Part shown: positions 20,760 through 38,523 of the stretch, piece by piece
Layout: each line of letters begins with the position of its first letter
How positions within the stretch are numbered: the stretch's first letter is position 1
Source: Candidatus Omnitrophota bacterium
GTDB lineage: Bacteria > Omnitrophota > Gorgyraeia > Tantalellales > Tantalellaceae
DNA length: 64,000 bases
Assembly (NCBI GenBank): GCA_041667545.1
Contig: JBAYES010000001.1
Coordinates: 5,928-69,927 of the forward strand
Direction: 5' to 3'
The notes under the pieces: model-generated
What the model was told of the DNA's origin: nothing
Database searches by the model: none
Seen by the model: only the letters and a program-made list of their open reading frames with translations
Made by a program: the position numbers and the translations under genes

Positions 20760-20761
20760 GT

Positions 20762-20797: not shown

Positions 20798-20803
20798 GGT
20801 CTT

Positions 20804-20846
20804 GTGCCGGGTTCACAAAAGCAGGTTCCCATTACGAACCTGGCAC
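20804..20846 (+). promoter_or_regulatory. conserved 42-nt upstream element, copy 1 of 3 (GTGCCRGGTTCACAAAAGCRGGTTCCCATTACGAACCTGGCA)
   Basis: Near-identical copies at 24588-24628 and 26017-26058, each 29-77 nt upstream of a start codon. It contains an outer inverted repeat GTGCCRGGTTC/GAACCTGGCAC and an inner one CAGGTTC/GAACCTG. Confidence 0.75.
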
Positions 20847-20874
20847 AGAAAAACTGTAAAAAAAGGAAACAAAC

Positions 20875-21603
20875 ATGATAGAAGGCGTAAAAGTAAAACA
20901 GCTGAAACTCATCCCGGACGATCGCGGCAGGCTTATGGAAATACTGCGGAAAGACGATGACTTGTTTGCGGAATTCGGACAGGTGTATATGACAACGGCC
21001 TTTCCGGGAGTTGTAAAGGCCTGGCATTTCCACAAAAAGCAAACTGACAATTTTACCTGTATAAGGGGGTGTATGCGTCTCGGTCTGTATGACTCCCGTA
21101 AAACCTCGTCTACATACGGCAAAGTCGAAGAATTCATAATAAGCCTTGATAGCCCGATGCTTGTTCAGATACCACCTGAAGTTTATCACGGGTTCAAGTG
21201 CATAAGCGAGGAAGAAGCTGTAGTAATAAACACGGTAACCGTACCATACGATAAGAACGATCCGGACGAATACAGAGTAGACGCGTTTGAAAATGATATC
21301 CCTTTCGACTGGAACGCCGTCATTGCGAGGCCCGCAGGGCAGAGCAACCCAAAAAACGAGTCGACTGAAACGCCGTCATTGCGAGGCCCGCAGGGCCGAA
21401 GCAACCCAAAAAACGAGTCGACCGAAACGCCGTCATTGCGAGGCCCGCAGGACCGAAGCAACCCAAGGAACGAGTCGACCGAAACGCCGTCATTGCGAGG
21501 CCCGCAGGGCCGAAGCAACCCAAAAAACGAGTCGACCGAAACGCCGTCATTGCGAGGCCCGCAGGGCCGAAGCAACCCAAAAAAACGAGGTAACCTGACA
21601 TGA
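20875..21603 (+). CDS. rfbC: dTDP-4-dehydrorhamnose 3,5-epimerase RmlC with an in-frame tandem-repeat C-terminal extension
   Basis: RmlC cupin core through ...DPDEYRVDAFENDIPFDW. No stop codon follows, and the frame stays open through 5 x 57-bp repeats (NESTETPSLRGPQGRSNPK). It ends at a TGA overlapping the rfbA ATG. Confidence 0.75.
   Translation: MIEGVKVKQLKLIPDDRGRLMEILRKDDDLFAEFGQVYMTTAFPGVVKAWHFHKKQTDNFTCIRGCMRLGLYDSRKTSSTYGKVEEFIISLDSPMLVQIPPEVYHGFKCISEEEAVVINTVTVPYDKNDPDEYRVDAFENDIPFDWNAVIARPAGQSNPKNESTETPSLRGPQGRSNPKNESTETPSLRGPQDRSNPRNESTETPSLRGPQGRSNPKNESTETPSLRGPQGRSNPKKRGNLT
21311..21594 (+). repeat. tandem repeat array A: five copies, unit 57 bp with a 56-bp first copy (GAAACGCCGTCATTGCGAGGCCCGCAGGGCCGAAGCAACCCAAAAAACGAGTCGACC)
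   Basis: Copy starts at 21311, 21367, 21424, 21481 and 21538, identical apart from a few substitutions. The array lies between the rfbC domain end and the rfbA start. Confidence 0.95.
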
Positions 21604-22340: not shown

Positions 22341-22391
22341 TATAACTAGATGCAAGCAACCGGGTGCAAGTTCTACCGGCCACCTACCATG

Positions 22392-22418
22392 GACTAATGA
22401 CTATGGACTACACAACGA
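22392..22418. repeat. CCATRGTC repeat, inverted orientation
   Basis: ccatggactaatgactatggactac, the reverse complement of GTAGTCCATAGTCATTAGTCCATGG. Confidence 0.7.
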
Positions 22419-22428
22419 GAGGCGACAT

Positions 22429-23406: not shown

Positions 23407-23436
23407 CGTAAAAGATCTTCAGGGAACATAAGTTTT

Positions 23437-24342
23437 ATGAAAATACTTATAACAGGGTCCGGCGGGATGCTGGGGCGGGAACTTCGCGGCGTTCTTTCAA
23501 AGGGAGAAAATGAAATAGCCGGGTTGGACATTGCTTTGACGGATATGGCGAAGCCCGAACCGGGAGTTTTTTATAATGTTAACATAAACGATGCCGAAGA
23601 GATCAAGAAGGTCTTTGAAAAAGAAAAACCGGATATAGTTATTCATACAGCGGCCTGGACAGATGTGGACGGCTCTGAGAAAGATCCCGAAAAGGCGCGT
23701 AAGATAAATGTCGAGGGGACTGTTAATGTAGCCGAATCGGCTCGGAAACATTCCGCTGACCTCTTATATATCAGTACGGATTTTGTTTTTGACGGCGGGA
23801 AAAACGCTCCGTATACGGAACTTGACGAGTGTGCTCCCCTAAGTGTTTACGCTAAGACGAAATGGGAAGGAGAGAACAAGGTCAGAGGATCTCTGGAAAA
23901 TTATGCCATAGTAAGAACAAGCTGGCTTTTCGGCCCCGGGGGAAAGAACTTCGTTAAAGCCATAGTATCAAGATCTAAAGACCACAAAACGATACAGGTA
24001 GTGAACGATCAGACGGGTTCTCCGACATACACAAAGGATCTGGCCGATAGCGTAAAGAAACTTCTTGAGAAGGGGATAAAAGGCGGGGAAATATACCATG
24101 TATGTAATTCAGGCCAATGTTCCTGGTATGAGTTCGCCCTTAAGATAAAAGATCTTGTGCCCGAGATGAAAGATGTAAATATTGTACCCTTGTCTTCCGT
24201 CGAACTTGGCCGCTCGGCCCCAAGGCCCGCGTATTCCGTAATGAACACAAGCAAGTTCCGGGAACATACTGGCATGAGTCTAAGGAATTGGCAAGAAGCG
24301 CTGGAAGAGTACCTATGCGAAGAGGGAAGGGCAAAGAGGTAA
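23437..24342 (+). CDS. rfbD: dTDP-4-dehydrorhamnose reductase RmlD
   Basis: MKILITGSGGMLG N-terminus and RmlD-like length. The stop TAA is embedded in GGTAAGGGG. Confidence 0.85.
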   Translation: MKILITGSGGMLGRELRGVLSKGENEIAGLDIALTDMAKPEPGVFYNVNINDAEEIKKVFEKEKPDIVIHTAAWTDVDGSEKDPEKARKINVEGTVNVAESARKHSADLLYISTDFVFDGGKNAPYTELDECAPLSVYAKTKWEGENKVRGSLENYAIVRTSWLFGPGGKNFVKAIVSRSKDHKTIQVVNDQTGSPTYTKDLADSVKKLLEKGIKGGEIYHVCNSGQCSWYEFALKIKDLVPEMKDVNIVPLSSVELGRSAPRPAYSVMNTSKFREHTGMSLRNWQEALEEYLCEEGRAKR

Positions 24343-24372
24343 GGGGTAAGGGCGAAGAGGGAAGGGCAGAGA
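24320..24372 (+). repeat. purine-rich GGTAAGGGG/CGAAGAGGG tract overlapping the rfbD stop codon
   Basis: gaagagggaagggcaaagaggtaaggggtaagggcgaagagggaagggcagag. Similar tracts at 2625-2690, 27034-27060, 29953-30062 and 32866-32925. Confidence 0.85.
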
Positions 24373-24465
24373 GCGAAGGGTTATGCGGAATAGCGTTTTT
24401 CACGTCGTTGCGAGGGAGCGAAGGGTTATGCGGAATAGCGTTTTTCACGTCGTTGCGAGGGAGCG
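24373..24465 (+). repeat. tandem repeat array B: two copies of a 45-bp unit ending in CGTCGTTGCGAGGGAG
   Basis: Unit gcgaagggttatgcggaatagcgtttttcacgtcgttgcgagggag starts at 24373 and 24418. It is followed by GCGACCGAAGCAATCTAATAAAATAAAAATAAG. Confidence 0.9.
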
Positions 24466-24503
24466 AAGCGACCGAAGCAATCTAATAAAATAAAAATAAG
24501 AAG
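24447..24503 (+). promoter_or_regulatory. conserved terminal element CGTCGTTGCGAGG...CCGAAGCAATCTAATAAAATAAAAATAAG, copy 1 of 3
   Basis: The CCGAAGCAATYTAATAAAATAAAAATAA tail recurs almost exactly at 30106-30141 and 32957-32992. Confidence 0.7.
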
Positions 24504-24535
24504 TCGGAGAGCAAAGAGGTAAGAGGAAAGGGTAG

Positions 24536-24572
24536 TCCATAGACCATAGTCGATAGTCCATGGTTTGGGAAC
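24536..24572. repeat. CCATRGTC short repeats, fourth occurrence
   Basis: ggtagtccatagaccatagtcgatagtccatggtttgg. Confidence 0.8.
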
Positions 24573-24587
24573 ATGACTCCGGGTCTC

Positions 24588-24628
24588 GTGCCAGGTTCAC
24601 AAAAGCGGGTTCCCATTACGAACCTGGC
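24588..24628 (+). promoter_or_regulatory. conserved 42-nt upstream element, copy 2
   Basis: gtgccaggttcacaaaagcgggttcccattacgaacctggc, about 70 nt upstream of the 24699 start. Confidence 0.75.
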
Positions 24629-24698
24629 GAAGGGCGGAACGCCCCCGCCGTCATCCTGAGGAGCCGAAGGCGACGAAGGATCCCAAAAAAGGAAAACA

Positions 24699-26012
24699 AT
24701 GAACACACATGCAGCATTAAAACAAAAGATCAAGAATAAAACCGCCACTGTGGGTGTCATCGGCCTCGGTTATGTCGGCCTTCCCATGGCCGTGCAGTTC
24801 GCCCGAAAAGGATTTGACGTTCGAGGTATAGACTTAAGCGCAAAACGTATAGCCAGATTGAAAAAAGGCGTTTCCTACATTGGCGACATATCGGACGCGG
24901 CGATAAAAGAAGCCCTCACATCCAAAAAATTCACCGTAACATCGGACGCTAAGCACTTAAAAAAATGCGATGTTGTTATAGTCTGCGTACCCACTCCCAT
25001 AAATAAGGCCCTGAAACCCGATATCTCATACATACTCTCAGCCGCGAAAGTAATGAAAGAGAATATCCGGCCCGGCCAGCTTTTTGTGCTTGAAAGTACA
25101 ACATACCCCGGAACTACGCGGGAGGTTCTTTTGCCCATACTTTCCGGAAAGAAACTTACGGCGGGCAACGATTTTTTTCTTGCCTTTTCTCCCGAAAGAA
25201 TAGATCCGGGTAATCCAAAATATGATTTTTCCAATATACCCAAGCTTGTCGGCGGTATTACCGGTAAATGCACGGAACTTGCCAAACTTCTTTACCGGCA
25301 AGTCACTGAAAAGGTAATAGGCCTTTCTTCTCCCGAGACGGCGGAGGTAACCAAACTGCTTGAAAACTCATTCCGGATAGTTAATATCGGACTCATAAAC
25401 GAATTCGCGAATTTATGCCACAAACTAGACATAGACGTATGGGAAGTTATTGAAGCGGCAAAAACAAAACCCTTCGGTTACATGCCTTTTTATCCCGGCC
25501 CGGGAGTGGGCGGGCACTGCATACCTGCCGATCCCATGTACCTTTCATGGAAAGCCAGGAAGGTGGGTTTTGAGACAAGGATGATAGACCTTGCCGCTAA
25601 AGTCAACATAAACGCTCCACGTCATATAGTGGAAAGGATAAGCGCAATTCTAAAAAAATACGGGAAAAAGATAAAAAACTCTAAAATACTTATCCTGGGA
25701 GCGGCATATAAAAAAAATATAAACGATCTCAGGGAGTCGCCCGCGCTGGATGTAATGAAGGCGCTGGACAATAAAAAGGCGAAATGGGCGTATAGTGACG
25801 CGTATATCCCGTATTTGGACATACATGGTCTTAAGTCCAAAAGCGTTAAACTTTCACCAAACCTTGTCAAAAAACAGGATCTTGTCGTGATACTAACAGA
25901 CCACAGCAATGTAGATTACAAAATGGTAGCCAAGAACTCGAAAAGGATCTTTGATACACGTAATATAACAGGCAGATCAGGAATAAAAGGGGACAATATC
26001 GTCAAGTTATGA
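24699..26012 (+). CDS. nucleotide-sugar dehydrogenase of the UDP-GlcNAc/UDP-ManNAc 6-dehydrogenase type (WbpA/WecC/TviB-like)
   Basis: N-terminal VGVIGLGYVGLP Rossmann motif and catalytic GGHCIP. The 437-aa length is typical of the TviB/WecC clade. Confidence 0.85.
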   Translation: MNTHAALKQKIKNKTATVGVIGLGYVGLPMAVQFARKGFDVRGIDLSAKRIARLKKGVSYIGDISDAAIKEALTSKKFTVTSDAKHLKKCDVVIVCVPTPINKALKPDISYILSAAKVMKENIRPGQLFVLESTTYPGTTREVLLPILSGKKLTAGNDFFLAFSPERIDPGNPKYDFSNIPKLVGGITGKCTELAKLLYRQVTEKVIGLSSPETAEVTKLLENSFRIVNIGLINEFANLCHKLDIDVWEVIEAAKTKPFGYMPFYPGPGVGGHCIPADPMYLSWKARKVGFETRMIDLAAKVNINAPRHIVERISAILKKYGKKIKNSKILILGAAYKKNINDLRESPALDVMKALDNKKAKWAYSDAYIPYLDIHGLKSKSVKLSPNLVKKQDLVVILTDHSNVDYKMVAKNSKRIFDTRNITGRSGIKGDNIVKL

Positions 26013-26016
26013 TCTT

Positions 26017-26058
26017 GTGCCGGGTTAACAAAAGCAGGTTCTCATTACGAACCTGGCA
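26017..26058 (+). promoter_or_regulatory. conserved 42-nt upstream element, copy 3
   Basis: gtgccgggttaacaaaagcaggttctcattacgaacctggca, starting 5 nt after the upstream stop and about 45 nt before the 26104 start. Confidence 0.75.
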
Positions 26059-26103
26059 TAAAAAAGCGCAACTTCTCTCGCGGTCAAAAAAAAGGAGTCA
26101 CAC

Positions 26104-27036
26104 ATGTCTAAATACCTTGTAACAGGCGGAGCCGGATTTATAGGGTCTAACATTGTAGAAGAACTCGTTTCCCGGGGAGAAATCGTACGCGTTCTGGACA
26201 ATCTTTCAACCGGCTTCGAAGAGCATATCGCTCCTTTCATGGACAAGATAGAGTTCCAAAAAGGCGACATCAGAAAAGAGGAAGATGTGAAGAAGGCTGT
26301 TTCGGGAATGGATTACGTTATTCATCAGGCGGCTTTAAGAAGCGTAGCTAAAAGCGTAGAGGCCCCGGTGCCGACCAATGACGTCAATGTATGGGGAACT
26401 CTTAACATGCTTCTTATCTCCGTAGAAAATAAAATAAAAAGGTTTGTTTACGCTTCTTCGAGTTCGGCTTACGGCGACTGTGATGTTTTTCCCGAGCATG
26501 AGGGGCTTTGTCCCAACCCGATATCTCCATACGCGGTGAGCAAACTTGCCGGAGAGCATTATGCCAGGATGTTTACTCACACAATGGGCCTGGAAACCGT
26601 AAGCCTGCGTTATTTCAACGTATTCGGACCGCGTCAGAATCCGGAATCTAAGTATTCGGCGGTAATTCCGGCATTTATTGACAGGCTTGTAAAGAATGAA
26701 CCGTGCATTATAGACGGAACAGGGGAACAGTCCAGGGATTTTACTTATGTAAAGAACGTCGTCGACGCAAATATAGCTTCATGTCATGCAAAAGGCGTTT
26801 CCGGAATGGTTTTCAACGTAGCGTGCGGAGAAAGTTATTCTGTGAACGAAACGGCAAGATCCATCGCCAAAATTCTGGGTAAGAATATTTCCCCAGTATA
26901 CGGCCCGAAAAGAAAGGGAGATGTACTAAAAACCTATGCCGACATAACGGCGCTGAAAGAGAAACTGGGAGTCACTCCGGAAGTAGGCTTTTACGAAGGC
27001 CTGGAAAAAACAGTTAAGTGGTTCGTAGAGAAGTAA
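26104..27036 (+). CDS. NAD-dependent nucleotide-sugar 4-epimerase (WbpP/TviC-like)
   Basis: YLVTGGAGFIGSN Rossmann motif and catalytic YAVSKLA (YxxxK). Pairs with the upstream TviB-like dehydrogenase. Confidence 0.8.
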   Translation: MSKYLVTGGAGFIGSNIVEELVSRGEIVRVLDNLSTGFEEHIAPFMDKIEFQKGDIRKEEDVKKAVSGMDYVIHQAALRSVAKSVEAPVPTNDVNVWGTLNMLLISVENKIKRFVYASSSSAYGDCDVFPEHEGLCPNPISPYAVSKLAGEHYARMFTHTMGLETVSLRYFNVFGPRQNPESKYSAVIPAFIDRLVKNEPCIIDGTGEQSRDFTYVKNVVDANIASCHAKGVSGMVFNVACGESYSVNETARSIAKILGKNISPVYGPKRKGDVLKTYADITALKEKLGVTPEVGFYEGLEKTVKWFVEK

Positions 27037-27069
27037 GGGTGAGGGCAAAGAGGTAAGGGGCACAAAGCC

Positions 27070-27366
27070 CCGTCATTGCGAGGAATGAACGAAGTGAGTG
27101 ACGAACCAAACGCGTCTTCTCCGTCATTGCGAGGAACGAACGAAGTGAGTGACGAACCAAACGCGTCTTCTCCGTCATTGCGAGGAACGAACGAAGTGAG
27201 TGACGAACCAAACGCGTTTTCTCCGTCATTGCGAGGAACGAACGAAGTGAGTGACGAACCAAACGCGTTTTCTCCGTCATTGCGAGGAACGAACGAAGTG
27301 AGTGACGAATCAAACGCGTTTTCTCCGTCATTGCGAGGAACGAACGAAGTGAGTGACGAAGCAAAC
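27070..27366 (+). repeat. tandem repeat array C: about 5.8 copies of a 51-bp unit CCGTCATTGCGAGGAACGAACGAAGTGAGTGACGAACCAAACGCGTCTTCT
   Basis: Copy starts at 27070, 27121, 27172, 27223, 27274 and 27325. The last copy ends ...GACGAAGCAAACTAAATAAACATG at the carbamoyltransferase start. Confidence 0.95.
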
Positions 27367-27375
27367 TAAATAAAC

Positions 27376-29205
27376 ATGAAAAACAACAAAACCTACATAT
27401 TAGGAATATCCGCTTACTATCACGACGCGGCAGCGGTTCTCCTGGAAGACGGCAATATTATCGCAGCCGCCCAGGAAGAGCGGTTCACCCGCAAAAAGCA
27501 CGACCCGTCATTTCCTCTGAAGGCGGTTGAATATTGTCTTACCGGTGCCGATATCAAAATAGAAGACGTTGACATTGTGGCTTTCTACGATAAACCCTTT
27601 CTCAAATTCGAAAGGCTTCTCGAAACTTATGTGGCCTACGCGCCTTTCGGCATAAGATCTTTCATACAGGCCATGCCTCCCTGGGTAAAACAGAAACTCT
27701 TCATGAAAGAGCATATAAAAAGCGAACTCGGATACAAGGGTAGAATAATATTCCCCGAACATCACCATTCCCACGCTTCAAGCGCGTTCTACCCCTCGCC
27801 TTTCGAGGAAGCGGCCATACTTACGGTTGACGGTGTGGGAGAATGGGCCACGGCAAGCATAGCAAAAGGCAGCGGCAGCAAGCTGGAACTTTTAAAAGAG
27901 ATAAAGTTCCCGCATTCCCTGGGGCTTCTTTATTCGGCGTTCACTTACTATTGCGGGTTCAGGGTAAATTCCGGAGAGTATAAACTTATGGGGCTTGCCC
28001 CCTATGGCGAACCTAAATACGCGGAACTCATAACGGACAAACTTATTGACATTAAGGATGACGGATCGTTCAAGCTTGATCTCAGATATTTTAACTATTG
28101 TACAGGCCTTACCATGACGAACAGGAAATTCCATTCTCTTTTCGGCGGCCCGCCAAGAAAGAAAGAAGGCGCGCTTCTTCAAAAACATATGGATATAGCC
28201 CGTTCCATACAGGATGTGACCGAAACAGTTATCATGAAGATGGCAAAATATACCCGCAACCTTACAGACTGCCGCGATCTTTGCATGGCGGGAGGCGTAG
28301 CCCTGAACTGTGTGGCGAACGGCAAGATGGTTCGGGAAGGACTTTTTGACAATATATGGATACAGCCGGCTTCATCCGATGCCGGAGGCGCCCTCGGCGC
28401 GGCTTTGGCAGCATGGCATGAGTGTATGGGCCGGGAAAGGCCGGTAGATCATGGGCGTGACTCGCAAAAGGCAAGTTTACTCGGACCGGAGTTTTCCGAC
28501 AGTGAGATAGAGGGCTATCTCATCAAGGAAAAGATTCCTTATAACAAGGTCCCTCCGGAAGAGATCTCAAAACGAACGGCTGATCTTATAGCTTCGGAGA
28601 ATGTTATCGGCTGGTTTCAGGGAAGAATGGAATTCGGGCCGAGAGCCCTTGGCGCCAGAAGTATTCTGGGAGACCCGAGATCCGAGAAAATGCAGTCTTT
28701 AATAAACCGAAAGATAAAATTCAGGGAATCCTTCAGGCCGTTCGCGCCCAGTATTCTACTTGAATCCGCGAAAGAATATTTCAGCATGGAAGGTGAAAGT
28801 CCGTACATGCTTATGGTGTTCCCGGTATCCGAAAATAAAAGAGTGAAAAATACTTCAGGAGAAGAACTATTTGGAATAAACAAACTCAAGGAAAAACGCT
28901 CGCTTGTCCCGGCCATAACCCATGTAGATAACTCCGCGAGAGTCCAGACAGTTAAACAGGAGGATAATCCGGCATATTACGATCTTATAAATGAGTTCAA
29001 GGTGAGGCACAACTGTCCACTTGTCATAAACACATCTTTTAACGTCAGGGGAGAACCCATAGTCTGCACACCGGCAGACGCCTACAGATGTTTTATGCGT
29101 ACCAATATGGATTATCTTGTAATGGGTAATTTTATTATCGACAAAAAAGATCAGGATCCTTCAAGAATAAAGCTTGAAGAAGTCAATAATTTTGAATTAG
29201 ACTGA
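27376..29205 (+). CDS. carbamoyltransferase (NodU/CmcH/SxtI family)
   Basis: N-terminal ILGISAYYHDAAAVLL, the HHHSHASSAF metal motif and a C-terminal YrdC-like domain. The protein is 609 aa. Confidence 0.85.
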   Translation: MKNNKTYILGISAYYHDAAAVLLEDGNIIAAAQEERFTRKKHDPSFPLKAVEYCLTGADIKIEDVDIVAFYDKPFLKFERLLETYVAYAPFGIRSFIQAMPPWVKQKLFMKEHIKSELGYKGRIIFPEHHHSHASSAFYPSPFEEAAILTVDGVGEWATASIAKGSGSKLELLKEIKFPHSLGLLYSAFTYYCGFRVNSGEYKLMGLAPYGEPKYAELITDKLIDIKDDGSFKLDLRYFNYCTGLTMTNRKFHSLFGGPPRKKEGALLQKHMDIARSIQDVTETVIMKMAKYTRNLTDCRDLCMAGGVALNCVANGKMVREGLFDNIWIQPASSDAGGALGAALAAWHECMGRERPVDHGRDSQKASLLGPEFSDSEIEGYLIKEKIPYNKVPPEEISKRTADLIASENVIGWFQGRMEFGPRALGARSILGDPRSEKMQSLINRKIKFRESFRPFAPSILLESAKEYFSMEGESPYMLMVFPVSENKRVKNTSGEELFGINKLKEKRSLVPAITHVDNSARVQTVKQEDNPAYYDLINEFKVRHNCPLVINTSFNVRGEPIVCTPADAYRCFMRTNMDYLVMGNFIIDKKDQDPSRIKLEEVNNFELD

Positions 29206-29221
29206 CCAGTGGCGGGAGAAT

Positions 29222-29626
29222 ATGGAAGAGAAGAAGATACAAAAAAAAGATCTGAGAGAGTTTGGAATGGTGCTGTCTCTCATTCTGGCTCTTTTCGCGT
29301 TCATCCATTTCCGAAAAGGGCATTTTGATCTTACTAAATGGTTATCCATGTTCTCTGGCATGTCGGTTTTGTTCGCGATACTGGTGCCCGCGGCCTTAAT
29401 ACCGGCTTTTAAAGTTTTCACAAAAATAGCCCATGCTCTCGGCTGGTTCAACACAAGGCTTATCTTAGCCTTCGTTTACTATCTTATAGTAACCCCGATA
29501 GGTATAGTTTTCCGTATTTTCGGGAAAGATCTTTTGTCTTTAAAATTAGACAAGAACAAACCAAGCTACTGGCTTGACCATCATTCGGGAGGCGTCACGG
29601 CAGAGTCCCTGGAAAAACAGTTTTAG
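29222..29626 (+). CDS. SxtJ-like small membrane protein
   Basis: 134-aa protein with about 3 TM helices immediately downstream of the carbamoyltransferase. The ...REFGMVLSLILALF segment resembles SxtJ-family proteins. Confidence 0.45.
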   Translation: MEEKKIQKKDLREFGMVLSLILALFAFIHFRKGHFDLTKWLSMFSGMSVLFAILVPAALIPAFKVFTKIAHALGWFNTRLILAFVYYLIVTPIGIVFRIFGKDLLSLKLDKNKPSYWLDHHSGGVTAESLEKQF

Positions 29627-29639
29627 GGTCCGAAAAAGC

Positions 29640-29760
29640 GCAAAAAAGAGGAGCTCCTCGCTGTCATTCGCTATGAGGTCGCGGGGTTTGTGGAAAGGAT
29701 CCTGTTTCCTTGGTCATTACGAGGAGCCCTGTACCGGAGCGAAGCGACTATTACAATGCG
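29640..29760 (+). repeat. degenerate single copy of the CGTCATTGCGAGG...CGACGAAGCAA element
   Basis: gtcattacgaggagccctgtaccggagcgaagcgactattacaatgcgacgaagcaaacc, preceded by gctgtcattcgctatgagg. Confidence 0.6.
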
Positions 29761-29793
29761 ACGAAGCAAACCCCAAACAAAAGGATTGAACAT

Positions 29794-29952
29794 ATGGGAA
29801 AAATGGGGATAATGAGAGAATTATGGGACTTCATGAGAGTCCGGAAAAAGTGGTGGCTTCTGCCCATAATAATAATGCTGCTTCTTCTGGGGCTTTTGTT
29901 AATATTCACCCAGTCCTCAGCAGTAGCCCCGTTCATATACACGTTGTTTTGA
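29794..29952 (+). CDS. SxtK-like/DUF5989-like small membrane protein
   Basis: MGKMGIMRELWDFMRVRKKWWLLPIIIMLLLLGLLLIFTQSSAVAPFIYTLF. The RKKWWL...APFIYTLF pattern matches small proteins found after carbamoyltransferase genes. I prefer this internal ATG over the ORF start at 29710. Confidence 0.5.
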   Translation: MGKMGIMRELWDFMRVRKKWWLLPIIIMLLLLGLLLIFTQSSAVAPFIYTLF

Positions 29953-30062
29953 GCAAAGAGGTAAGGGGTAAGAGGCAAGGGGCAAGAGGTAAGGGCAGGG
30001 GGCGAAGGGCGGAGAGCAAAGGGCAAAGAGCGAAGGGCAAAGAGCGAAGGGCGGAGATCGGA
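29953..30062 (+). repeat. purine-rich (GGTAAGGGG/CAAGAGG/CGAAGGG)n tract
   Basis: gtaaggggtaagaggcaaggggcaagaggtaagggcagggggcgaagggcggagagcaaagggcaaagagcgaagggcaaagagcgaagggcggag. It contains four or more GGG/GGGG runs. Confidence 0.85.
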
Positions 30063-30076
30063 AGGATCGCAAAGCC

Positions 30077-30141
30077 CCGTCTTTGCGAGGTCCCCGGAAC
30101 GGGGGCCGAAGCAATCTAATAAAATAAAAATAAAACAAGTC
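30077..30141 (+). promoter_or_regulatory. structured element CCGTCTTTGCGAGG-[CCCCGGAACGGGG hairpin]-CCGAAGCAATCTAATAAAATAAAAATAAAACAAGTC
   Basis: A near-identical element at 32927-32992 has its hairpin changed to CCTCCGGAACGGAGG, which is compensatory covariation. It lies about 25 nt upstream of the UXS start. Confidence 0.7.
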
Positions 30142-30164
30142 TCGGTGTAAAAAAAAGGACAATC

Positions 30165-31106
30165 ATGCGTATACTACTAACCGGCGGAGCCGGATTTCTC
30201 GGGTCACATCTGTCTGAACGCCTTCTAAAAGAGGGACATAAAGTTGTCTGTATGGACAACCTTATAACCGGCAGAACGGAGAATATATCTCACCTTATCT
30301 CTAATGAGGACTTTGAATTCATCAAACATGATGTCTCAAAATTCATTATTGTTGACGAGAAACTGGATTATGTTTTTCATTTTGCATCTCCCGCAAGCCC
30401 CGAAGACTATCTCAATCACCCGATAAAAACCCTTAAAGTGGGTTCTCTGGGGACACATAACGCTCTTGGCGTGGCAAAAGAGCATGAAGCAAAATTCCTT
30501 CTCGCGTCCACTTCCGAGGTTTACGGAGACCCTCTTGTAAACCCCCAGCCGGAAACTTACTGGGGCAACGTAAACCCCATAGGGCCGCGCGGAGTTTATG
30601 ACGAAGCAAAGAGATTCGCGGAAGCTATAACGCTTGCTTATCACAGGGTTCACGGTGTAGATACTAAAATAGCCCGTATCTTCAATACTTACGGGGAAAG
30701 AATGCGCCATCATGACGGCCGGGTAGTACCGAATTTCATAGATCAGGCATTGAAGGGAGAACCACTTACAGTTTACGGTGACGGGACACAGACGAGAAGT
30801 TTTTGCTACGTGTCAGACCTTATTGAGGGGATATTCCGCCTTATGAATTCAGATCTTAACGAGCCGGTAAACATCGGAAACCCCATAGAGCTGAGCGTTC
30901 TTGAATTTGCGGAAAAAATAAAAGAAATATCCGGAGCTGATTGTGAAATAGTCTTCAAGCCGCTCCCGGTCAACGACCCAAAAGTAAGAAGGCCGGACAT
31001 AACCAAAGCAAAAAAAGAACTCGGCTGGGAACCCGAGATTAATTTAGAGCAAGGATTAAAGAGAACTATAGAATGGGCCAAGAGAGAAGCAAAAACGACT
31101 CAGTAG
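30165..31106 (+). CDS. UDP-glucuronate decarboxylase (UDP-xylose synthase)
   Basis: [16 protein letters not shown] start, YDEAKR catalytic motif and 313-aa length fit UXS. The upstream ugd supplies UDP-GlcA. Confidence 0.8.
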
Positions 31107-31115
31107 AATAATGCT

Positions 31116-31367
31116 TCCGTCATTGCGAGGAGTGGACGAAAAGAGTATTCCTCCGTCGTTGCGAGGAGCGAACGAAGAGAGTATTTCTCCGTCGTTGCGA
31201 GGAGCGAACGAAGAGAGTATTCCTCCGTCGTTGCGAGGAGCGAACGAAAAGAGTATTCCTCCGTCGTTGCGAGGAGCGAACGAAAAGAGTATTCCTCCGT
31301 CGTTGCGAGGAGCGAACGAAGAGAGTATTTCTCCGTCGTTGCGAGGAGCGAACGAAGAGAGCGACGA
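31116..31367 (+). repeat. tandem repeat array D: seven copies of a 36-bp unit TCCGTCGTTGCGAGGAGCGAACGAAGAGAGTATTYC
   Basis: Copy starts at 31116, 31152, 31188, 31224, 31260, 31296 and 31332. Ends ...GAGCGACGAAGCAATCTCAAAAAATCAAGGAGCAATATG at the gmd start. Confidence 0.95.
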
Positions 31368-31394
31368 AGCAATCTCAAAAAATCAAGGAGCAAT

Positions 31395-32375
31395 ATGAGC
31401 AACAAAAAAGCGCTGATAACCGGTATAACCGGCCAGGACGGCAGTTATCTTGCCGAATACCTGCTTAAAAAAGGATACGAGGTGTATGGTGTTGTGAGAC
31501 GGGTTGCCTTGGAAGACCAAAAGCACAGAATGTGGCGCATAAACCACATAGCCGACAAAATTAAATTTCACTCCGGGTCGCTTGAAAGTTATCCCAGTCT
31601 TTTTAAGATAGTGGAGAAGATCAGGCCTGACGAATGTTATCATCTTGCGGCTCAGAGTTTTGTGACCTATTCTTTTGAAGACGAATTCTCGACCCTTAAT
31701 GCCAATATTAACGGAACGCATTACATTTTATCGGCTCTTCAGAGCGTGGTTCCCGACTGCCGGTTCTATTTCGCCGCGTCCAGCGAGATGTTCGGGCGTG
31801 TAGAAGAAGTTCCTCAAACTGAGATAACAAAGTTCCACCCCAGGTCAGCATATGGCATTTCAAAAGTAGCGGGTTTTGATCTTACAAGGAATTACCGTGA
31901 GGCGTACAATATGTACGCGGTAAGCGGCATACTTTTTAACCATGAATCGCCGCGCAGAGGATATGAATTCGTTACGAGGAAGATAACTTCTCTTGCGGCG
32001 CAAATTAAACTTGGCAAAGCCCAAAAGCTGTATCTTGGCAATCTTGATGCCAAAAGAGACTGGGGCCATGCGCGGGAGTATGTCAAAGCCATGCATGCTA
32101 TGCTTCAGCAGGATGAACCGTATGACTATGTGATAGGTACGGGAGAAACCCACTCGGTGCGTGAATTTGCCGAAATAGCCTTTAAATGCCTTGATCTGGA
32201 TTACAAGAAATATGTGGAAATCGACCAGAATTTTTTCCGTCCCGCAGAAGTAGATCTTCTCATCGCCGATCCGTCAAAAGCAAAAAAAGAACTGGGCTGG
32301 GAATACGATCTCTCGTTCGAAGATCTTGTCTCGGAGATGGTAAGATCAGATTACGACCATCTGTCAAAGAGCTAA
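31395..32375 (+). CDS. gmd: GDP-mannose 4,6-dehydratase
   Basis: KALITGITGQDGSYLAEYLL start, YxxxK catalytic motif and 326-aa length fit Gmd. Confidence 0.9.
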   Translation: MSNKKALITGITGQDGSYLAEYLLKKGYEVYGVVRRVALEDQKHRMWRINHIADKIKFHSGSLESYPSLFKIVEKIRPDECYHLAAQSFVTYSFEDEFSTLNANINGTHYILSALQSVVPDCRFYFAASSEMFGRVEEVPQTEITKFHPRSAYGISKVAGFDLTRNYREAYNMYAVSGILFNHESPRRGYEFVTRKITSLAAQIKLGKAQKLYLGNLDAKRDWGHAREYVKAMHAMLQQDEPYDYVIGTGETHSVREFAEIAFKCLDLDYKKYVEIDQNFFRPAEVDLLIADPSKAKKELGWEYDLSFEDLVSEMVRSDYDHLSKS

Positions 32376-32398
32376 GGGCTAAGGGCGAAGAGCAATCT

Positions 32399-32445
32399 CC
32401 CCGTCATTGCGAGGAGTCCACGGCTACTAAAACTTAGAACGACGA
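32399..32445 (+). repeat. single copy of the CGTCATTGCGAGG...CGACGAAGCAAACC element
   Basis: ccccgtcattgcgaggagtccacggctactaaaacttagaacgacgaagcaaacc. Confidence 0.7.
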
Positions 32446-32523
32446 AGCAAACCAAATAATATGAAAATGACAAGTCGCGCAAAGGACAAAGTGGAAAGGC
32501 AGGATAAGGACGATAGTGAATAA

Positions 32524-32871
32524 ATGGGTGCAAAGATGAGTGTATTCCACAAGGAACTTGGAAGTGGACGCTGGAATGAGATGCCATTCTGCGAGCAAAT
32601 GGCGAATATCGGAAGCGAAGTAAGCAGGGCATTCAGATGGCGTGAAAAAGACAGAAAGGATCTTTCACTTAACTCGGCAAACAGGGCTTTGGAGCTTTTG
32701 GACATGACCACAAGACCCATAAAAAAATACGCCCGGTTAAAGGAACTATCGCGAGTAAGAGAAGTTTTGGTTGATTTTTTCTATGGTAGCAACGAATACG
32801 GTTCTTCTGGGATATCATTGCTAAAATATTTCGACCATTTTAACTATCTGGCGAGAATAGGTAAGGGGTAG
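32524..32871 (+). CDS. small hypothetical protein
   Basis: 115-aa ORF bracketed by repeat elements, with a weak all-alpha resemblance to MazG-like NTP pyrophosphohydrolases. No confident family assignment. Confidence 0.4.
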   Translation: MGAKMSVFHKELGSGRWNEMPFCEQMANIGSEVSRAFRWREKDRKDLSLNSANRALELLDMTTRPIKKYARLKELSRVREVLVDFFYGSNEYGSSGISLLKYFDHFNYLARIGKG

Positions 32872-32925
32872 GGGCGAAGGGGCAAGAGGTAAGGGGTAAG
32901 AGCAAAGGGCGGAAGGGTCACAAAA
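32866..32925 (+). repeat. purine-rich GGTAAGGGG tract
   Basis: ggtaaggggtaggggcgaaggggcaagaggtaaggggtaagagcaaagggcggaaggg. Confidence 0.85.
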
Positions 32926-32926
32926 T

Positions 32927-33031
32927 CTCGTCGTTGCGAGGCCTCCGGAACGGAGGCCGAAGCAATTTAATAAAATAAAAATAAAACAAGTCCCGGGATT
33001 GCTTCGGTCGCTCCGCTTCCTCGCAACGACG
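32927..33031 (+). promoter_or_regulatory. inverted pair of CGTCGTTGCGAGG...CCGAAGCAAT elements flanking a conserved A-rich core
   Basis: Forward copy at 32927-32992 with a CCTCCGGAACGGAGG hairpin. An inverted partial copy ATTGCTTCGGTCGCTCCGCTTCCTCGCAACGACGG at 32997-33031 gives a roughly 100-nt imperfect palindrome. Confidence 0.7.
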
Positions 33032-33091
33032 GGAAACGACCGAAGAATCTAAGGACTATTTAGCAATTTAACAACAAGGAGATACAGTACA

Positions 33092-34216
33092 ATGCAAGTA
33101 CCGCTTTTAGACCTGAAAGGTCAGTACAAAAGCATTAAACAGGAAATAGATAAGACAATAGCCGATGTGGTCGAAAGCCAGTACTTCATACTTTCCTCTG
33201 AAGTATCGGAGTTTGAGAAGGAAGTTGCTTCTTATACCGGTGTTCCAGCTGGTGTCGGCGTGGCTTCCGGCACAGACGCCATAATCCTTGCGTTGAGAGC
33301 CGCGGGCATAGGCAAGGGAGACAGAGTAATAACCACACCTTTTACTTTTTTCGCTACCGCCGAGTCGATTTCCGTCCTCGGAGCTAAGCCAGTCTTCGTT
33401 GATATCGACCCCGAAACTTACAATATAGACCCAAAGGCGATCGAAGAAGCCATGCTCAAAATACAAAAACGCGATAACGCCGAACGCGGTACGATCAAGG
33501 CTATCATCCCGGTCCATCTCTACGGCCAATGCGCCGACATGGGCCCTATAATGGAGATAGCCCTTAAATACGGGCTTAAAGTAATAGAAGACTGCGCCCA
33601 GGCCATGGGAGCCGTCTACAAAGGGAAGAAAGCGGGGAGTTTCGGCCTCGCCGGAGCATTCAGTTTCTTTCCCAGCAAGAATCTGGGCGGATTCGGAGAC
33701 GGAGGAATGGTAGTTTCGGACGATGACGGTATTATTTCAGCCGTGAAAAAGTTAAGGGTACATGGCAGCTCAAAACAGTACATTCATGACGAAATAGCGT
33801 ATAATTCCAGGCTCGATAGCCTTCAGGCCGCGATACTGAGGGTTAAGCTAAGAAAGCTCAATTTCTGGATAGAAAAACGTATAGAGATCGCCAGAAGATA
33901 CAATGAGGCCTTTCAGGGAACGGATATCGTTACTCCCAAAACCGGAGAAGGAAATACACACACTTATCATCAATACACCATATCGGTTCCTGACAGAGAT
34001 GGTCTGCTAAATTATCTGGGGGAAAAGGGAATAGGCTCAAGAGTATATTATCCCGTACCCATGCACCTTCAGCCGTGTTATAAAGATCTGGGCTACAAAA
34101 AGGGAGATTTCCCCATATCGGAAAAAGCCGCAAAAAGCGTACTCTCTCTCCCGGTATATCCCGAACTTACGGAAGAAATGATACAATACGTCATCGACAC
34201 AGTACTTGCGTTTTAG
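33092..34216 (+). CDS. DegT/DnrJ/EryC1/StrS-family sugar aminotransferase (PLP-dependent)
   Basis: N-terminal VPLLDLKGQY, the GSFG..GAFSFFPSKNLG region and 374-aa length. Confidence 0.85.
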   Translation: MQVPLLDLKGQYKSIKQEIDKTIADVVESQYFILSSEVSEFEKEVASYTGVPAGVGVASGTDAIILALRAAGIGKGDRVITTPFTFFATAESISVLGAKPVFVDIDPETYNIDPKAIEEAMLKIQKRDNAERGTIKAIIPVHLYGQCADMGPIMEIALKYGLKVIEDCAQAMGAVYKGKKAGSFGLAGAFSFFPSKNLGGFGDGGMVVSDDDGIISAVKKLRVHGSSKQYIHDEIAYNSRLDSLQAAILRVKLRKLNFWIEKRIEIARRYNEAFQGTDIVTPKTGEGNTHTYHQYTISVPDRDGLLNYLGEKGIGSRVYYPVPMHLQPCYKDLGYKKGDFPISEKAAKSVLSLPVYPELTEEMIQYVIDTVLAF

Positions 34217-34301: not shown

Positions 34302-35012
34302 ATGGACAAAAACATTAGAGAAGCTCAAAAAGAAGTTTTAAAGGTTTTTTCGCGGCATGCCCAAAATTTCGCGCTTTCCGGCGGAACGGCCTTAGAACTT
34401 TACTATCTGCATCACAGATTTTCAATTGATCTGGATTTTTTTTCTCCCGTATATGATGTGAAAGAGATAGACCTTCTGATCAAAGAGTTAAAGAAAGACC
34501 TAAAGACCGATATAAAATTGGAAAATGAACTCATGTCCGGGAATAAAGCAAAAGTTCGTTTTTATACGATGCCCATAAGTGATTCAGAAAAGACGTTGAA
34601 AATAGATTTTGTTGAAGACGTGATAGTAGATAAACCTGAAATTGAGAATTTTGAAGGTGTCAGAGTTTATGGGGCGCATAATATATATTTGCAAAAGGCC
34701 TCGGCCATTACGGGAACTCAGATAAACACAGACCACATAGGACGGGAGATCATGCAGGGCAGGGTGGAAGCCAGGGACGCATTCGATCTATATATGCTTT
34801 CAAAAAAAATAAGTCCGCTTCACGTGTTTTTAAAAAGTTCTCCGGGGTATATACAACGGGGGATAATTCAATGGTATAGAAGGTTCTCAAGAACAGATCT
34901 TAAGCTATCACTGCTTGACCTGGATATCTATTCAAGAACATTCGACTCAAAGGAAATGATAATTCATCTGGAAGAAGAAATAGAAAAATTCATGCAGGAA
35001 ACCATAATATGA
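34302..35012 (+). CDS. AbiEii-like nucleotidyltransferase (DUF1814 family)
   Basis: GGTALELYYLHHRFSIDLDFF matches the AbiEii N-terminal NTase motif. Confidence 0.55.
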   Translation: MDKNIREAQKEVLKVFSRHAQNFALSGGTALELYYLHHRFSIDLDFFSPVYDVKEIDLLIKELKKDLKTDIKLENELMSGNKAKVRFYTMPISDSEKTLKIDFVEDVIVDKPEIENFEGVRVYGAHNIYLQKASAITGTQINTDHIGREIMQGRVEARDAFDLYMLSKKISPLHVFLKSSPGYIQRGIIQWYRRFSRTDLKLSLLDLDIYSRTFDSKEMIIHLEEEIEKFMQETII

Positions 35013-35533
35013 GCAAAGCAAATTCATCATATTCAAAGTATTTCTGGGACCTGAACGAAAAAGCGCTCACGGAAACAGCGGATATCTTAAAGGATCCCGA
35101 TCATGAGAGATTTCAGCAGAGAATGGTCAGACTGCTTTCCCGCTGTCAGAGCCCGGAAGAGCTTTTTTCTGTAATTTCAAAAGACAACTTTGTCAAAGCT
35201 TGGCCTAAATTGAGCAGGTACTGGGCAAAAATAGAAAAAATCTCGGATTTCAGAGACTGGTGGCAGACAATATACGAGGAGATCCTGAGAAGACAAGGCA
35301 AGGCCACGAAGGCAATGGGAGAGCCTTCGGCGCTCTTTAAGAATATCGGGGCAAAGATCAGGGAAGCAAGGACAGAAAAGGAAATCAGCCAGAAAGATCT
35401 TGCTTTGGCGGTTGGAATGAAACAGCCCGATATTTCCAAGATCGAAGAGGGTAAAAAGAACATTACTCTTGAAACTTTAGCCCGAATATGTAAATATCTG
35501 GATATTCGAGAAATAGGGATAATCGGAAAATAG
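35009..35533 (+). CDS. XRE-family HTH protein with an unknown N-terminal domain
   Basis: C-terminal ISQKDLALAVGMKQPDISKIEEGKKNITLETLARICKYLDI helix-turn-helix. An ATGA start/stop overlap links it to the upstream NTase gene. Confidence 0.55.
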   Translation: MSKANSSYSKYFWDLNEKALTETADILKDPDHERFQQRMVRLLSRCQSPEELFSVISKDNFVKAWPKLSRYWAKIEKISDFRDWWQTIYEEILRRQGKATKAMGEPSALFKNIGAKIREARTEKEISQKDLALAVGMKQPDISKIEEGKKNITLETLARICKYLDIREIGIIGK

Positions 35534-35551
35534 TAGGAAAGGGGGACAGGC
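35456..35551 (+). repeat. 96-bp direct repeat, copy 1 (3' end of the XRE gene plus AGGAAAGGGGGACAGGC)
   Basis: About 96% identical to 37614-37709. Confidence 0.9.
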
Positions 35552-35605
35552 TACTTTTTATTCCTACAGTTCCCACAATATAAAAAGTTGCCTGTCCCCC
35601 TTTTT
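35541..35605. terminator. long-stem hairpin with a T-run on either strand (GGGGGACAGGC...GCCTGTCCCCC TTTTT)
   Basis: 11-bp perfect GC-rich stem, extendable to about 20 bp through ACTTTTTA/TAAAAAGT, followed by TTTTT. A T-run also follows on the - strand. Second copy at 38463-38523. Confidence 0.55.
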
Positions 35606-35694: not shown

Positions 35695-36462
35695 TTGGCG
35701 AAACTATGGAAACATGATCGATCGACGAGGTGCATGTTGAATAAACCGGAACTTAAACAGTATTTAATGAGCGGTCAGTTCCTGAATGCTCTGTCCAGAC
35801 GGAAATATTTTAGCTTTGACGAGCTTTATGCCAAATTGTCGAAAAAGTATCCGGATTTAAAAAGAGTACAGCTATCTCGCTATATGTTTGATGTTGTTAA
35901 AAATGGAAAAATATATGGCGCCGGTCGAGGATGGTACTCTTTGATCAAAAGTCCTTTGACGGCAGAGCCGGAGTTTGTTCAAGAAATTGTGGATCTTCTG
36001 GCCAATGAGTATCCGCAAGTTGTTTTTTCCTGTTGGTCGACCAAACATATCCGGTCTTTTATGCATCACCTGCTTGCGAAATTTGTGACATTTGTTTATA
36101 CGCAGTGGGAAGCGATGGAGATGATGGGAGATTTTCTGGAATCGGAAGGATACAAGGTATGGGTCAATCCGCACGGGAAGGATATTGATCGTTTCCATGT
36201 GAATATGGAGAAAACCGTTGTTATTCGCCCATTGATTTCTCGTGTTCCGGTTAATGGCCATTTTGCGACATTTGAGAAAATTCTGGTCGATCTGGGGGTG
36301 GAGATCCGGCAGTTGCCTTTAATGGATGAGAGCGAATATGACACCTTGTTATCGAATGCTTTGACAGCCGGACGTGTGGATGTCGGAACTCTGATTAGTT
36401 ATGCCAAGAGGCGGCGGTTAAGTATTGACAAGACTGTATTCAATATTCGCAAGGCGTTATGA
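35695..36462 (+). CDS. AbiEi-like antitoxin/transcriptional regulator
   Basis: N-terminal region with a GAGRGWYSL motif typical of AbiEi-family wHTH domains. Sits immediately upstream of an AbiEii gene. Confidence 0.5.
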   Translation: MAKLWKHDRSTRCMLNKPELKQYLMSGQFLNALSRRKYFSFDELYAKLSKKYPDLKRVQLSRYMFDVVKNGKIYGAGRGWYSLIKSPLTAEPEFVQEIVDLLANEYPQVVFSCWSTKHIRSFMHHLLAKFVTFVYTQWEAMEMMGDFLESEGYKVWVNPHGKDIDRFHVNMEKTVVIRPLISRVPVNGHFATFEKILVDLGVEIRQLPLMDESEYDTLLSNALTAGRVDVGTLISYAKRRRLSIDKTVFNIRKAL

Positions 36463-36515
36463 ATTAAATCCACATTTATCAAAAGTGTGGATTTAATTCA
36501 TATAGGGAATCTTAT

Positions 36516-37592: not shown

Positions 37593-37613
37593 TAGTGGCC
37601 TGTTCGTTGATCA

Positions 37614-37709
37614 AAGAACATTACCCTTGAAACTTTAGCCCGAATATGTAAATATCTGGATATTCGAGAAATAGGGATAAGCGGAAAATAGCAGGAAAAG
37701 GGGACAGGC
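37614..37709 (+). repeat. 96-bp direct repeat, copy 2, containing an orphan copy of the last 78 nt of the 35009..35533 gene
   Basis: aagaacattacccttgaaactttagcccgaatatgtaaatatctggatattcgagaaatagggataagcggaaaatagcaggaaaaggggacaggc. Confidence 0.9.
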
Positions 37710-38462: not shown

Positions 38463-38523
38463 GGGACAGGCTGCTTTTATCCCTACGGTTCCCACAATAT
38501 AAAAAGTTGCCTGTCCCCCTTTT
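38463..38523. terminator. long-stem hairpin with T-run, copy 2
   Basis: GGGGACAGGCTGCTTTTAT...ATAAAAAGTTGCCTGTCCCCC TTTT. Confidence 0.55.

Follow-up and report, generated by a model that had tools for sequence, protein, structure and literature searches.

The element at positions 30077 to 30141 of the window, which is the whole 64,000-nucleotide stretch of a Candidatus Omnitrophota contig analyzed here, is probably one member of a family of short, interspersed hairpin repeats that belongs to the CGTC-tagged superfamily of repetitive extragenic palindromic (REP) sequences and is equivalent to an Ssn-related motif (SRM). It represents a new sequence family within a known class, found here in an uncultured phylum, and not a new regulatory signal. 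Membership in the family is evident from the anatomy of the element, the covariation of its stem, its organization into dimers, its variable presence at orthologous sites, and the linkage of family copies to genes for Ssn-like proteins elsewhere.

The CGTC-tagged REPs were defined by Di Nocera, De Gregorio and Rocco (2013, BMC Genomics 14:522, PMC3733652) and include dRS3 in Neisseria as well as RPE-4 and RPE-6 in Rickettsia. They have an unpaired CGTC (or TGTC or CCTC) tag, a stem that starts with complementary A/T residues, and a short 3' tail that is mostly CCA. They occur mainly as dimers with the tags on the outside (HH), often heterodimers, and were reported to have no association with transposases. 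The 4 described families, CGTC-1 to CGTC-4, have stems of 8 to 9 bp and loops of 4 to 5 nt (PMC3733652). The NTS repeat in Neisseria, CGTCATTCCCGCGMAVGCGGGAATCYRG, is a member of this class (Chenal et al. 2025, Nat Commun 16:2388, PMC11893778). SsnA, a single-domain GIY-YIG protein of 94 amino acids (cd10448), binds and cuts the NTS only as sense-strand single-stranded DNA (ssDNA), not as double-stranded DNA or RNA. Cleavage depends on the 3 bases that precede the palindrome, and binding depends most on the C that directly follows it (PMC11893778). The ssn genes are flanked across bacteria by such hairpins, the SRMs, which were defined as hairpins of 20 to 50 nt that are preceded by a conserved, oriented GTC and have a C as the first base behind the palindrome (PMC11893778).

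Anatomy and covariation of the repeat family

The family was collected with two-box pattern scans of IMG/VR contigs and JGI metagenomes (at least 120 loci each) and of the Omnitrophota metagenome-assembled genomes (MAGs) L125, L127, and L180. The scans yielded at least 354 unique copies with at least 255 distinct cores of 4 to 30 nt. Each unit consists of a (C/T)GTC tag, the stem strand ATTGC, GA, a core of the form GG-variable hairpin-C (a G-C pair and a variable apical stem-loop), GAA, GCAAT, and then C. The stem comprises 5 bp, a GA/GAA internal loop, and then another 2 to 8 bp. The cores occur in 2 forms: the stem either continues directly from GG...CC, or is preceded in its variable part by a tandem G.A/A.G step (GAGG-A...GA-C). 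The loops are mostly triloops rich in GNA, and 92 of 177 hairpins have loops of 3 nt.

Statistics on the tag were obtained from a sample of 128 matches that was constrained on TTGCGAGG..CGAAGCAA only. GTC was present at positions -4 to -2 in 67 of the 128 matches. The dinucleotide TC followed CAA in 59 of the 67 matches with GTC versus 4 of the 61 matches without it, so that the real members separate cleanly from the chance matches. Among the 67 tagged matches, 66 had T (42) or C (24) before GTC, at position -5. The palindrome was followed by C in 64, then by T (37) or C (29) and then by C (42) or A (17). The 3' tail was CCA in a minority of these copies, and CTC was the commonest form. At the first position of the stem, 57 of the 67 matches had A (-1) and 60 had T (+1), with T-A as the next pair; copy 1 in the window (30077 to 30141) has T/T and copy 2 (32927 to 32992) has G.T at the first position, and both have T-A at the second.

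Pairing within the cores was examined in the 255 distinct cores, anchored on the fixed boxes only. Mirror positions 1 to 4 formed Watson-Crick pairs in 56% to 78% of the cores, versus 28% to 38% with permuted partners (at most 47% in 200 permutations) and 17% to 29% with slid partners. For a gap-free alignment of 34 distinct 14-nt cores, the covariation score was 0.345 versus 0.085 +/- 0.015 in shuffled alignments, and none of 500 shuffles reached the observed score. With slid partners the score was at most 0.068, and the alignment contained 57 double-sided changes versus 17.8 expected.

The sequence-only reading of the window had taken a difference between 2 copies as the signature of selection on secondary structure. 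The covariation among the metagenome and MAG copies supports a constraint on the hairpin at the level of secondary structure, but it is the family that demonstrates it and not the 2 copies alone. Since the length of the core is variable while the boxes are fixed, we infer that the recognized form is a folded single strand and not a duplex site with fixed spacing.

Sequence and folding of the copies in the window

The 2 copies of about 65 nt that had been singled out were both present, at 30077 to 30141 (copy 1) and 32927 to 32992 (copy 2), and are enclosed in a direct repeat of 125 nt with 79% identity (30021 to 30145 and 32872 to 32996). Their 65-mers differ at 6 positions. The pair C30093-G30103 in copy 1 is replaced by T32944-A32954 in copy 2, which is a true double-sided compensatory change, as had been claimed. 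Furthermore, T30091 forms a T.G wobble in copy 1, while C32942 forms a C-G Watson-Crick pair in copy 2. We estimated by rough combinatorics of our own, without a dedicated tool, that p is about 0.03 to 0.05 for a double change that restores one of 13 pairs among 6 random substitutions over 65 nt, and the change in copies 1 and 2 alone is therefore only suggestive.

Both copies fold into a hairpin that consists of a basal stem P1, (T)TTGC/GCAA(T), the internal loop GA/GAA, an upper stem P2 of 8 bp, and a GAA loop (Table 1). The hairpin is larger than had been described. The third copy had been thought to lack the hairpin, but folding showed that it has the common skeleton with a short core, GAGCGAAGCGAC, which is the short standard core of the family. 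It is preceded by a direct duplication of 45 nt, which bears a second box1 (GTCNTTGCGAGG) at 24404. In total, box1 occurs 24 times in the window versus 0.23 times expected.

Copy 2 is followed by a second, inverted unit with a different core, and positions 32929 to 33031 represent a heterodimer with the tags on the outside. The A-rich tail that follows copy 2 is therefore the loop of a hairpin of 111 nt, with a folding energy of -53.8 kcal/mol (z -6.3). It was also noted that the left unit of the dimer has a T at position 32967, in place of the C that is nearly invariant in the family and is retained by the inverted partner. By analogy with the NTS in Neisseria, where this C is the most critical base for the binding of SsnA, the left unit may be a decayed site. 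A K-turn or sarcin-ricin reading of the GA/GAA loop was rejected by inspection, since in our reasoning the lengths of the strands do not fit the consensus.

Table 1. Coordinates of family members and their parts in the window
Feature	Position	Strand	Description and basis
Tandem array	21305..21589	+	5 complete 57-nt units GTCATTGCGAGG-CCCGCAGGGC-CGAAGCAAC; repeat search, folding
Copy 3	24448..24505	+	CGTC 24448-24451, GTTGCGAGG, short core GAGCGAAGCGAC, CGAAGCAATC, then tail shared with copies 1 and 2
Tandem array	27070..27366	+	5.8 units of 51 nt, unit start CCGTCATTGCGAGG
Degenerate family copy	29714..29772	+	GTCATTACGAGG ... CGAAGCAAAC, upstream of DUF5989 gene
REP unit, copy 1	30078..30116	+	Folding, minimum free energy -20.5 kcal/mol, z -2.9
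Copy 1, tag	30078..30081	+	CGTC
Copy 1, P1	30083..30086 and 30111..30114	+	TTGC pairs with GCAA
Copy 1, internal loop	30087..30088 and 30108..30110	+	GA and GAA
Copy 1, P2	30089..30096 and 30100..30107	+	GGTCCCCG pairs with CGGGGGCC
Copy 1, apical loop	30097..30099	+	GAA
Copy 1, conserved base	30116	+	C
Copy 1, A-rich tail	30117..30141	+	TAATAAAATAAAAATAAAACAAGTC, read as retained dimer spacer
Tandem array	31116..31361 (feature entry to 31375)	+	6.8 units of 36 nt TCCGTCGTTGCGAGGAGCGAACGAAGAGAGTATTCC
Single copy	32400..32452	+	Long non-palindromic core, GTCATTGCGAGG-N28-CGAAGCAAAC
REP unit, copy 2, left half of inverted dimer	32929..32967	+	CGTC 32929-32932; P1 GTTGC/GCAAT; P2 GGCCTCCG/CGGAGGCC; GAA loop; sequence, folding (-22.3 kcal/mol, z -4.2)
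A-rich spacer ("tail") between inverted units	32968..32996	+	Loop of 111-nt hairpin
Right-hand inverted REP unit	32997..33031	-	Reverse complement CGTCGTTGCGAGG-GAAGCGGAGCGAC-CGAAGCAATC

Organization and variable presence

Tags-outside inverted pairs accounted for 139 of the 354 collected copies, with a median spacer of 24 nt; 16 copies were in tags-inside pairs, 144 were single, and 55 had a partial partner. The single copies showed no preference in orientation relative to the flanking genes (28 with both genes in the same sense versus 24 with both in the opposite sense), according to a crude gene call based on open reading frames (ORFs).

Copy 1 is located in the spacer between a DUF5989 gene and a gene for a UDP-glucuronate-decarboxylase-like protein (UXS). 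No element was found in the orthologous DUF5989-UXS spacer of the related Omnitrophota genomes L124 and L125, and none before the UXS gene in L123, where the upstream neighbor is a different gene. L125 contained a different dimer one gene upstream, with the core GCACGAAGTGC, and L127 contained an inverted pair and a 28-nt tandem array elsewhere. The variable presence at orthologous sites implies that the elements have been gained and lost, and rules them out as conserved leaders that belong to certain genes.

Linkage to genes for Ssn-like GIY-YIG proteins

Ten ORFs were flanked by the element on both sides, one of which matched the GIY-YIG family in Pfam. With a local jackhmmer search, 5 GIY-YIG genes for proteins of about 95 amino acids were identified in metagenome loci, all of which had CGTC-type repeats within about 100 nt. 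The repeats belonged to the family in the window at 4 of these genes and to a related GTCATTCTGAGC...GAAGAATC type at the fifth (L248). In a MAG contig of 596 kb (L323), the GIY-YIG gene was located inside a dense cluster of repeats of the window family.

A protein-based sample, selected independently of the repeats, contained at least 7,981 homologs. The best 120 clusters (P0001-P0120) were 81% to 98% identical over about 95 amino acids and came from many environments. For 57 of the homologs, gene calling had placed the start 15 or more residues too early, and in 53 of these over-called proteins a translated second box (box2; EAIS, KQS, SNL; for example ...VVARHDSAEAISGTIGVVSKQYYVYIM...) was located at most 25 residues from the true start.

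The Ssn-like protein beside the repeats (P0001-P0120; loci L301, L304, L227, L270, and L323) was often extended N-terminally through the repeat by gene callers, yielding peptides such as VIARHDSAEAIS, SLRGAEGDEAIS, and DCHASLAMT. Additional CGTC-type families with the structures GTCATTCTGAGC-core-GAAGAATCTC and GTCATTGCGAGC-core-CGTGGCAATCTC were observed beside the GIY-YIG family (L248, 700 to 1400; L323, 9900 to 11100), which suggests that there are several box variants per genome.

Comparison with known repeat classes

The repeats resemble the CGTC-tagged REPs in the unpaired 5' CGTC/TGTC tag (CGTC in all 3 copies, Table 1), the start of the stem with A-T and then T-A, the first base of the 3' tail (C), the intergenic location of the 8 sites in the window, the heterogeneous stems and loops, the predominance of tags-outside inverted dimers, including heterodimers, and the absence of an associated transposase. 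They differ from the described CGTC families in that cores of 4 to 30 nt are tolerated, and in that direct tandem arrays are common here but were "negligible" there. The hosts, Ca. Omnitrophota and other uncultured lineages, are outside the 5 phyla listed for the CGTC REPs (PMC3733652).

Both the 3 copies in the window and the family statistics conform to the SRM hairpin, with GTC upstream and C after the palindrome. As with the NTS and the SRMs, the repeats of the family flank a gene for a single-domain GIY-YIG protein of about 95 amino acids on both sides, albeit in other genomes, and the copies are clustered around particular gene sets. Unlike in the NTS and the SRMs, the internal loop is a conserved run of purines, and the apical stem is hypervariable.

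There are also similarities to the GTAG REPs and REPINs of E. coli and Pseudomonas, which likewise consist of palindromic tagged units, form doublets with long hairpins, are located between genes in operons, and may have side effects on mRNA. The tag is YGTC and not GTAG, however, there is no REP-associated tyrosine transposase (RAYT), and the partner, where one was seen, is a GIY-YIG protein and not an HUH/Y1 protein. That the repeats are classical REPs, REPINs, or miniature inverted-repeat transposable elements moved by a tyrosine (RAYT/IS200-like) or other transposase would explain the long hairpins of the inverted doublets, as in REPINs, and the variable presence at orthologous sites. We nevertheless consider this very improbable: besides the different tag, none of the 10 element-flanked ORFs matched Y1_Tnp or another transposase in Pfam, the single match being to GIY-YIG, and the published CGTC REPs are without such an association (PMC3733652). 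Literature searches by sequence string with GTCATTGCGAGG, or with TTGCGAGG together with CGAAGCAA, returned unrelated primer matches only, and we found no literature that names GIY-YIG together with repetitive extragenic palindromic sequences.

Several observations weigh against the assignment to the CGTC-REP/SRM class. The bipartite stem (5 invariant bp, GA/GAA, and a variable part of 2 to 8 bp) and the loops of mostly 3 nt (GNA) set the repeats apart from the CGTC REPs, and the element therefore belongs to none of the 4 described families. The published SRM pattern HGTCWYN(0-2)YYVSBRHN(0-5)WNVSBRGN(0-2)RNCYNB had no match on either strand of the window, while the NTS control matched. The associated proteins matched Pfam PF01541 only; NCBIfam gave nothing for 4 of the 5, and a sub-threshold match to a group I intron endonuclease for the protein at L248. 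A search of PDB with the GIY-YIG proteins gave only a distant match to UPF0213. No GIY-YIG or ssn gene was found in the window or in the approximately 100 kb of contig k141_2522559, which was searched to both ends. Since no ssn gene was seen in these 100 kb, we infer rather than observe the link to a nuclease in this genome. Finally, all 8 sites occupied by the family in the window are in sense orientation to the genes, as would be expected too if the repeats acted in RNA.

The main rival explanation is an intercistronic RNA element in the mRNA of a polysaccharide operon, which would act as a stabilizer, a processing site, a ribosome standby site, or a translation enhancer, and in which the stem would covary through RNA folding. 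In addition to the location of all 8 sites between co-oriented genes, many copies of the family end 15 to 25 nt before the ribosome-binding site (RBS) and ATG, and in 93% of the cores folding is better for the sense than for the antisense strand. The sense strand also contains G.T wobbles (T30091.G in copy 1; GTTGC/GCAAT in copy 2), and REPs are known to influence mRNA stability (PMC3733652). The difference in energy between the strands comes mostly from the constant GA-rich boxes, however, and G.T is not significantly more frequent than A.C in the variable stem (13 versus 7). Moreover, single copies have no orientation bias, about half of all copies are inverted dimers, the elements are not conserved at orthologous positions, and Rfam 15 gave no match at the gathering threshold in the window and none at E<=1 in the region from 19300 to 33200. 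The GC skew is positive throughout the window and all genes are on the + strand, and the directions of transcription and replication are thus inseparable here. On balance we regard an RNA element as unlikely, although the hairpins may well be transcribed within the operon and have a side effect on its mRNA, as known for REPs.

Proposed mechanism and implications

We think it most likely that an Ssn-type nuclease recognizes the repeat in single-stranded form; our confidence is good for the class of the repeat and lower for the enzymatic step in this genome. By analogy with the NTS and SsnA in Neisseria, the sense strand would fold when replication, transformation, or repair makes the DNA single-stranded. 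The base of the hairpin and the bases beside it would be bound by Ssn, a small GIY-YIG nuclease of a single domain, and the cut would be made a few nucleotides before the tag. For the apical stem, pairing alone would be needed, and the stem could for this reason covary, including the C-G to T-A change between copies 1 and 2. On this reading, the genome would encode a cognate Ssn that acts on the copies in the window, and the operon mRNA may be affected.

A bolder interpretation, which we put forward tentatively and hold to be possible rather than probable, is that the ATTGCGAGG...CGAAGCAATC repeats are a distinct, undescribed, and very widespread class of SRMs with a bipartite mode of recognition, in which the base stem and the GA-rich internal loop would be invariant and the apical hairpin free, and which is missed by the SRM pattern. 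The partner would be an unusually conserved clade of Ssn proteins, suggesting an SRM-ssn-SRM unit that moves horizontally. In the genome studied here, where the copies are concentrated in the nucleotide-sugar part of a surface-polysaccharide locus, the repeats might modulate ssDNA recombination or uptake like the NTS around variable genes in Neisseria, or they might have been co-opted as intercistronic RNA hairpins.

On the more probable reading as CGTC-REP/SRM copies, the apparent regulatory leader, conserved and covarying, is in fact a hairpin repeat, either selfish or domesticated, and a misreading is prevented. The class is extended to Ca. Omnitrophota and other uncultured lineages, and to an architecture in which the base and flanks of the hairpin are fixed and the top is free. 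Because the published pattern misses the family in the window, surveys that use it undercount SRMs. The many natural variants of the core can serve as an existing mutational scan of the changes that are tolerated by an Ssn-type ssDNA nuclease, which is useful for the proposed biotechnological use of the enzyme. In the annotation of metagenomes, the repeats also give rise to numerous false ORFs and to proteins that are extended too far at the N-terminus (e.g. ...VIARHDSAEAIS...). The gain is modest and lies in the architecture and breadth of the family, its escape from the published pattern, its clustering in a polysaccharide locus, and the annotation artifacts.

The A-rich tail

The claim that the A-rich tail is present 3 times was confirmed: the 27-nt sequence of box2 and tail, CGAAGCAATYTAATAAAATAAAAATAA, occurs at 24473, 30107, and 32958 versus 0.00 occurrences expected from shuffles. 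Over 28 nt, 2 of the tails are 100% identical, and the third has an identity of 96%. It had been placed 25 to 100 nt upstream of start codons, but the distances from its end to the next ATG are 24, 100, and 196 nt in the 3 copies, the shortest being that from copy 1 to the ATG of the UXS-like gene at 30165.

The sequence-only reading had proposed a promoter UP-like element, a regulator site, or part of a small RNA. A promoter/UP-like element or a protein-binding operator that serves the 3 downstream genes would account for the near-identity of the tails, their AT-richness, and their location upstream of start codons. No sigma-70-like site, with a -35/-10 match, was found in any of the 3 tails, however, and promoter-like sites in the region were at the level of chance (15 versus 16.1 expected). 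The unequal distances to ATG, the position of the copy 2 tail as a loop between inverted units, and the lack of such a sequence before the orthologous gene in related genomes also argue against this explanation, as does the exact 25-mer of the tail, which had no match in 596 Gb of genome contigs or in JGI metagenome contigs. We therefore consider it most improbable, and with neither an Rfam match nor an orientation bias in the family, none of the 3 proposals was upheld as a function specific to these genes. An intrinsic terminator was also rejected: on the + strand an A-rich tract comes after the hairpin, on the - strand a T-rich tract comes before it, and the element was not among the terminator-like sites.

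We prefer to interpret the tail as a spacer between the 2 units of an inverted REP dimer, specific to this lineage and not traced to any other strain. The simplest reading is that a module of REP and spacer, with or without the second REP, was duplicated locally, and that copies 1 and 3 are single units that have retained the spacer. Copies 1 and 3 are identical in box2 and tail but have unrelated cores, which shows mosaic reshuffling of modules and not simple descent. The reshuffling may be ascribed to recombination between repeats.

Other sites in the window and their surroundings

Eight intergenic sites in the stretch from 21.3 to 33.1 kb carry the family. Four of them are single copies (24.4, 29.7, 30.1, and 32.4 kb), one is the dimer (32.9 kb), and 3 are direct tandem arrays. 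No copy was found in the other approximately 85 kb of the contig k141_2522559, and all sites are located within 12 kb of nucleotide-sugar genes. This clustering recalls the NTS clusters around variable genes in Neisseria. The organism is probably a Candidatus Omnitrophota bacterium, since proteins encoded here had their closest counterparts, with identities of 86%, 81%, and 78%, in Omnitrophota MAGs. All 8 sites are located between co-oriented genes for nucleotide-sugar and polysaccharide functions on the + strand, including rml genes and genes for UDP-glucose dehydrogenase, epimerases, a carbamoyltransferase, the UXS-like protein, GDP-mannose dehydratase, and DegT. Between the stop codon and the ATG, the usual order is purine-rich heptads, then CCGTCRTTGCGAGG and the variable core, then CGAAGCAAYC, and finally an A-rich stretch and an RBS.

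The units inside the tandem arrays are identical throughout, without variable spacers, and a CRISPR array was rejected on these grounds; an integron attC site was rejected for lack of GTTRRRY core sites. In the array at 27070, box2 is intact in the final unit only, directly 5' of the ATG at 27376. In the array at 31116, the last unit is complete and is followed by CGAAGCAATCTCAAAAAATCAAGGAGCAATATG. A second assembly of the strain (L001) is 99.97% identical, and therefore gives no information on divergence. It contained 3, 1, and 4 fewer tandem units at 21305 to 21589, 24371 to 24468, and 31116 to 31361, respectively, and the same 51-nt array at 27070. The differences in unit number represent either real variation of the variable-number tandem repeat type or the collapse of short-read assemblies.

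Purine-rich tracts of heptads or 14-mers (AAGGGGT, AAGAGGC, AAGGGCG, etc.) were observed at 2596 to 2702, 24313 to 24398, 29942 to 30069, 32365 to 32392, and 32854 to 32927. They begin directly after stop codons, are mostly located 5' of a REP unit, and may be prone to form G-quadruplexes or be Shine-Dalgarno-like. A second heptad family, AGTCCAT/GGTCCAT, was present at 19399 to 19426, 20759 to 20795, 22389 to 22410, and 24533 to 24561, and resembles the short heptamers that are repeated in tandem in cyanobacteria. A further intergenic repeat (GTGCCGGGTTCACAAAAGCAGGTTCCCATTACGAACCTGGC, about 68 nt) contains the hairpin CAGGTTC/GAACCTG. It was found at 20785 to 20852, 24569 to 24636, and 25998 to 26065, and was flagged as terminator-like on the - strand.

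Also inserted in the polysaccharide cluster were 2 modules with the nucleotidyltransferase toxin AbiEii (34302 to 35533 and 35695 to 37592), one of which has a helix-turn-helix gene and the other a gene for DUF6577. These modules are bounded by 96%-identical direct repeats of 97 nt (35455 to 35551 and 37613 to 37709) and 49 nt (35556 to 35604 and 38475 to 38523).

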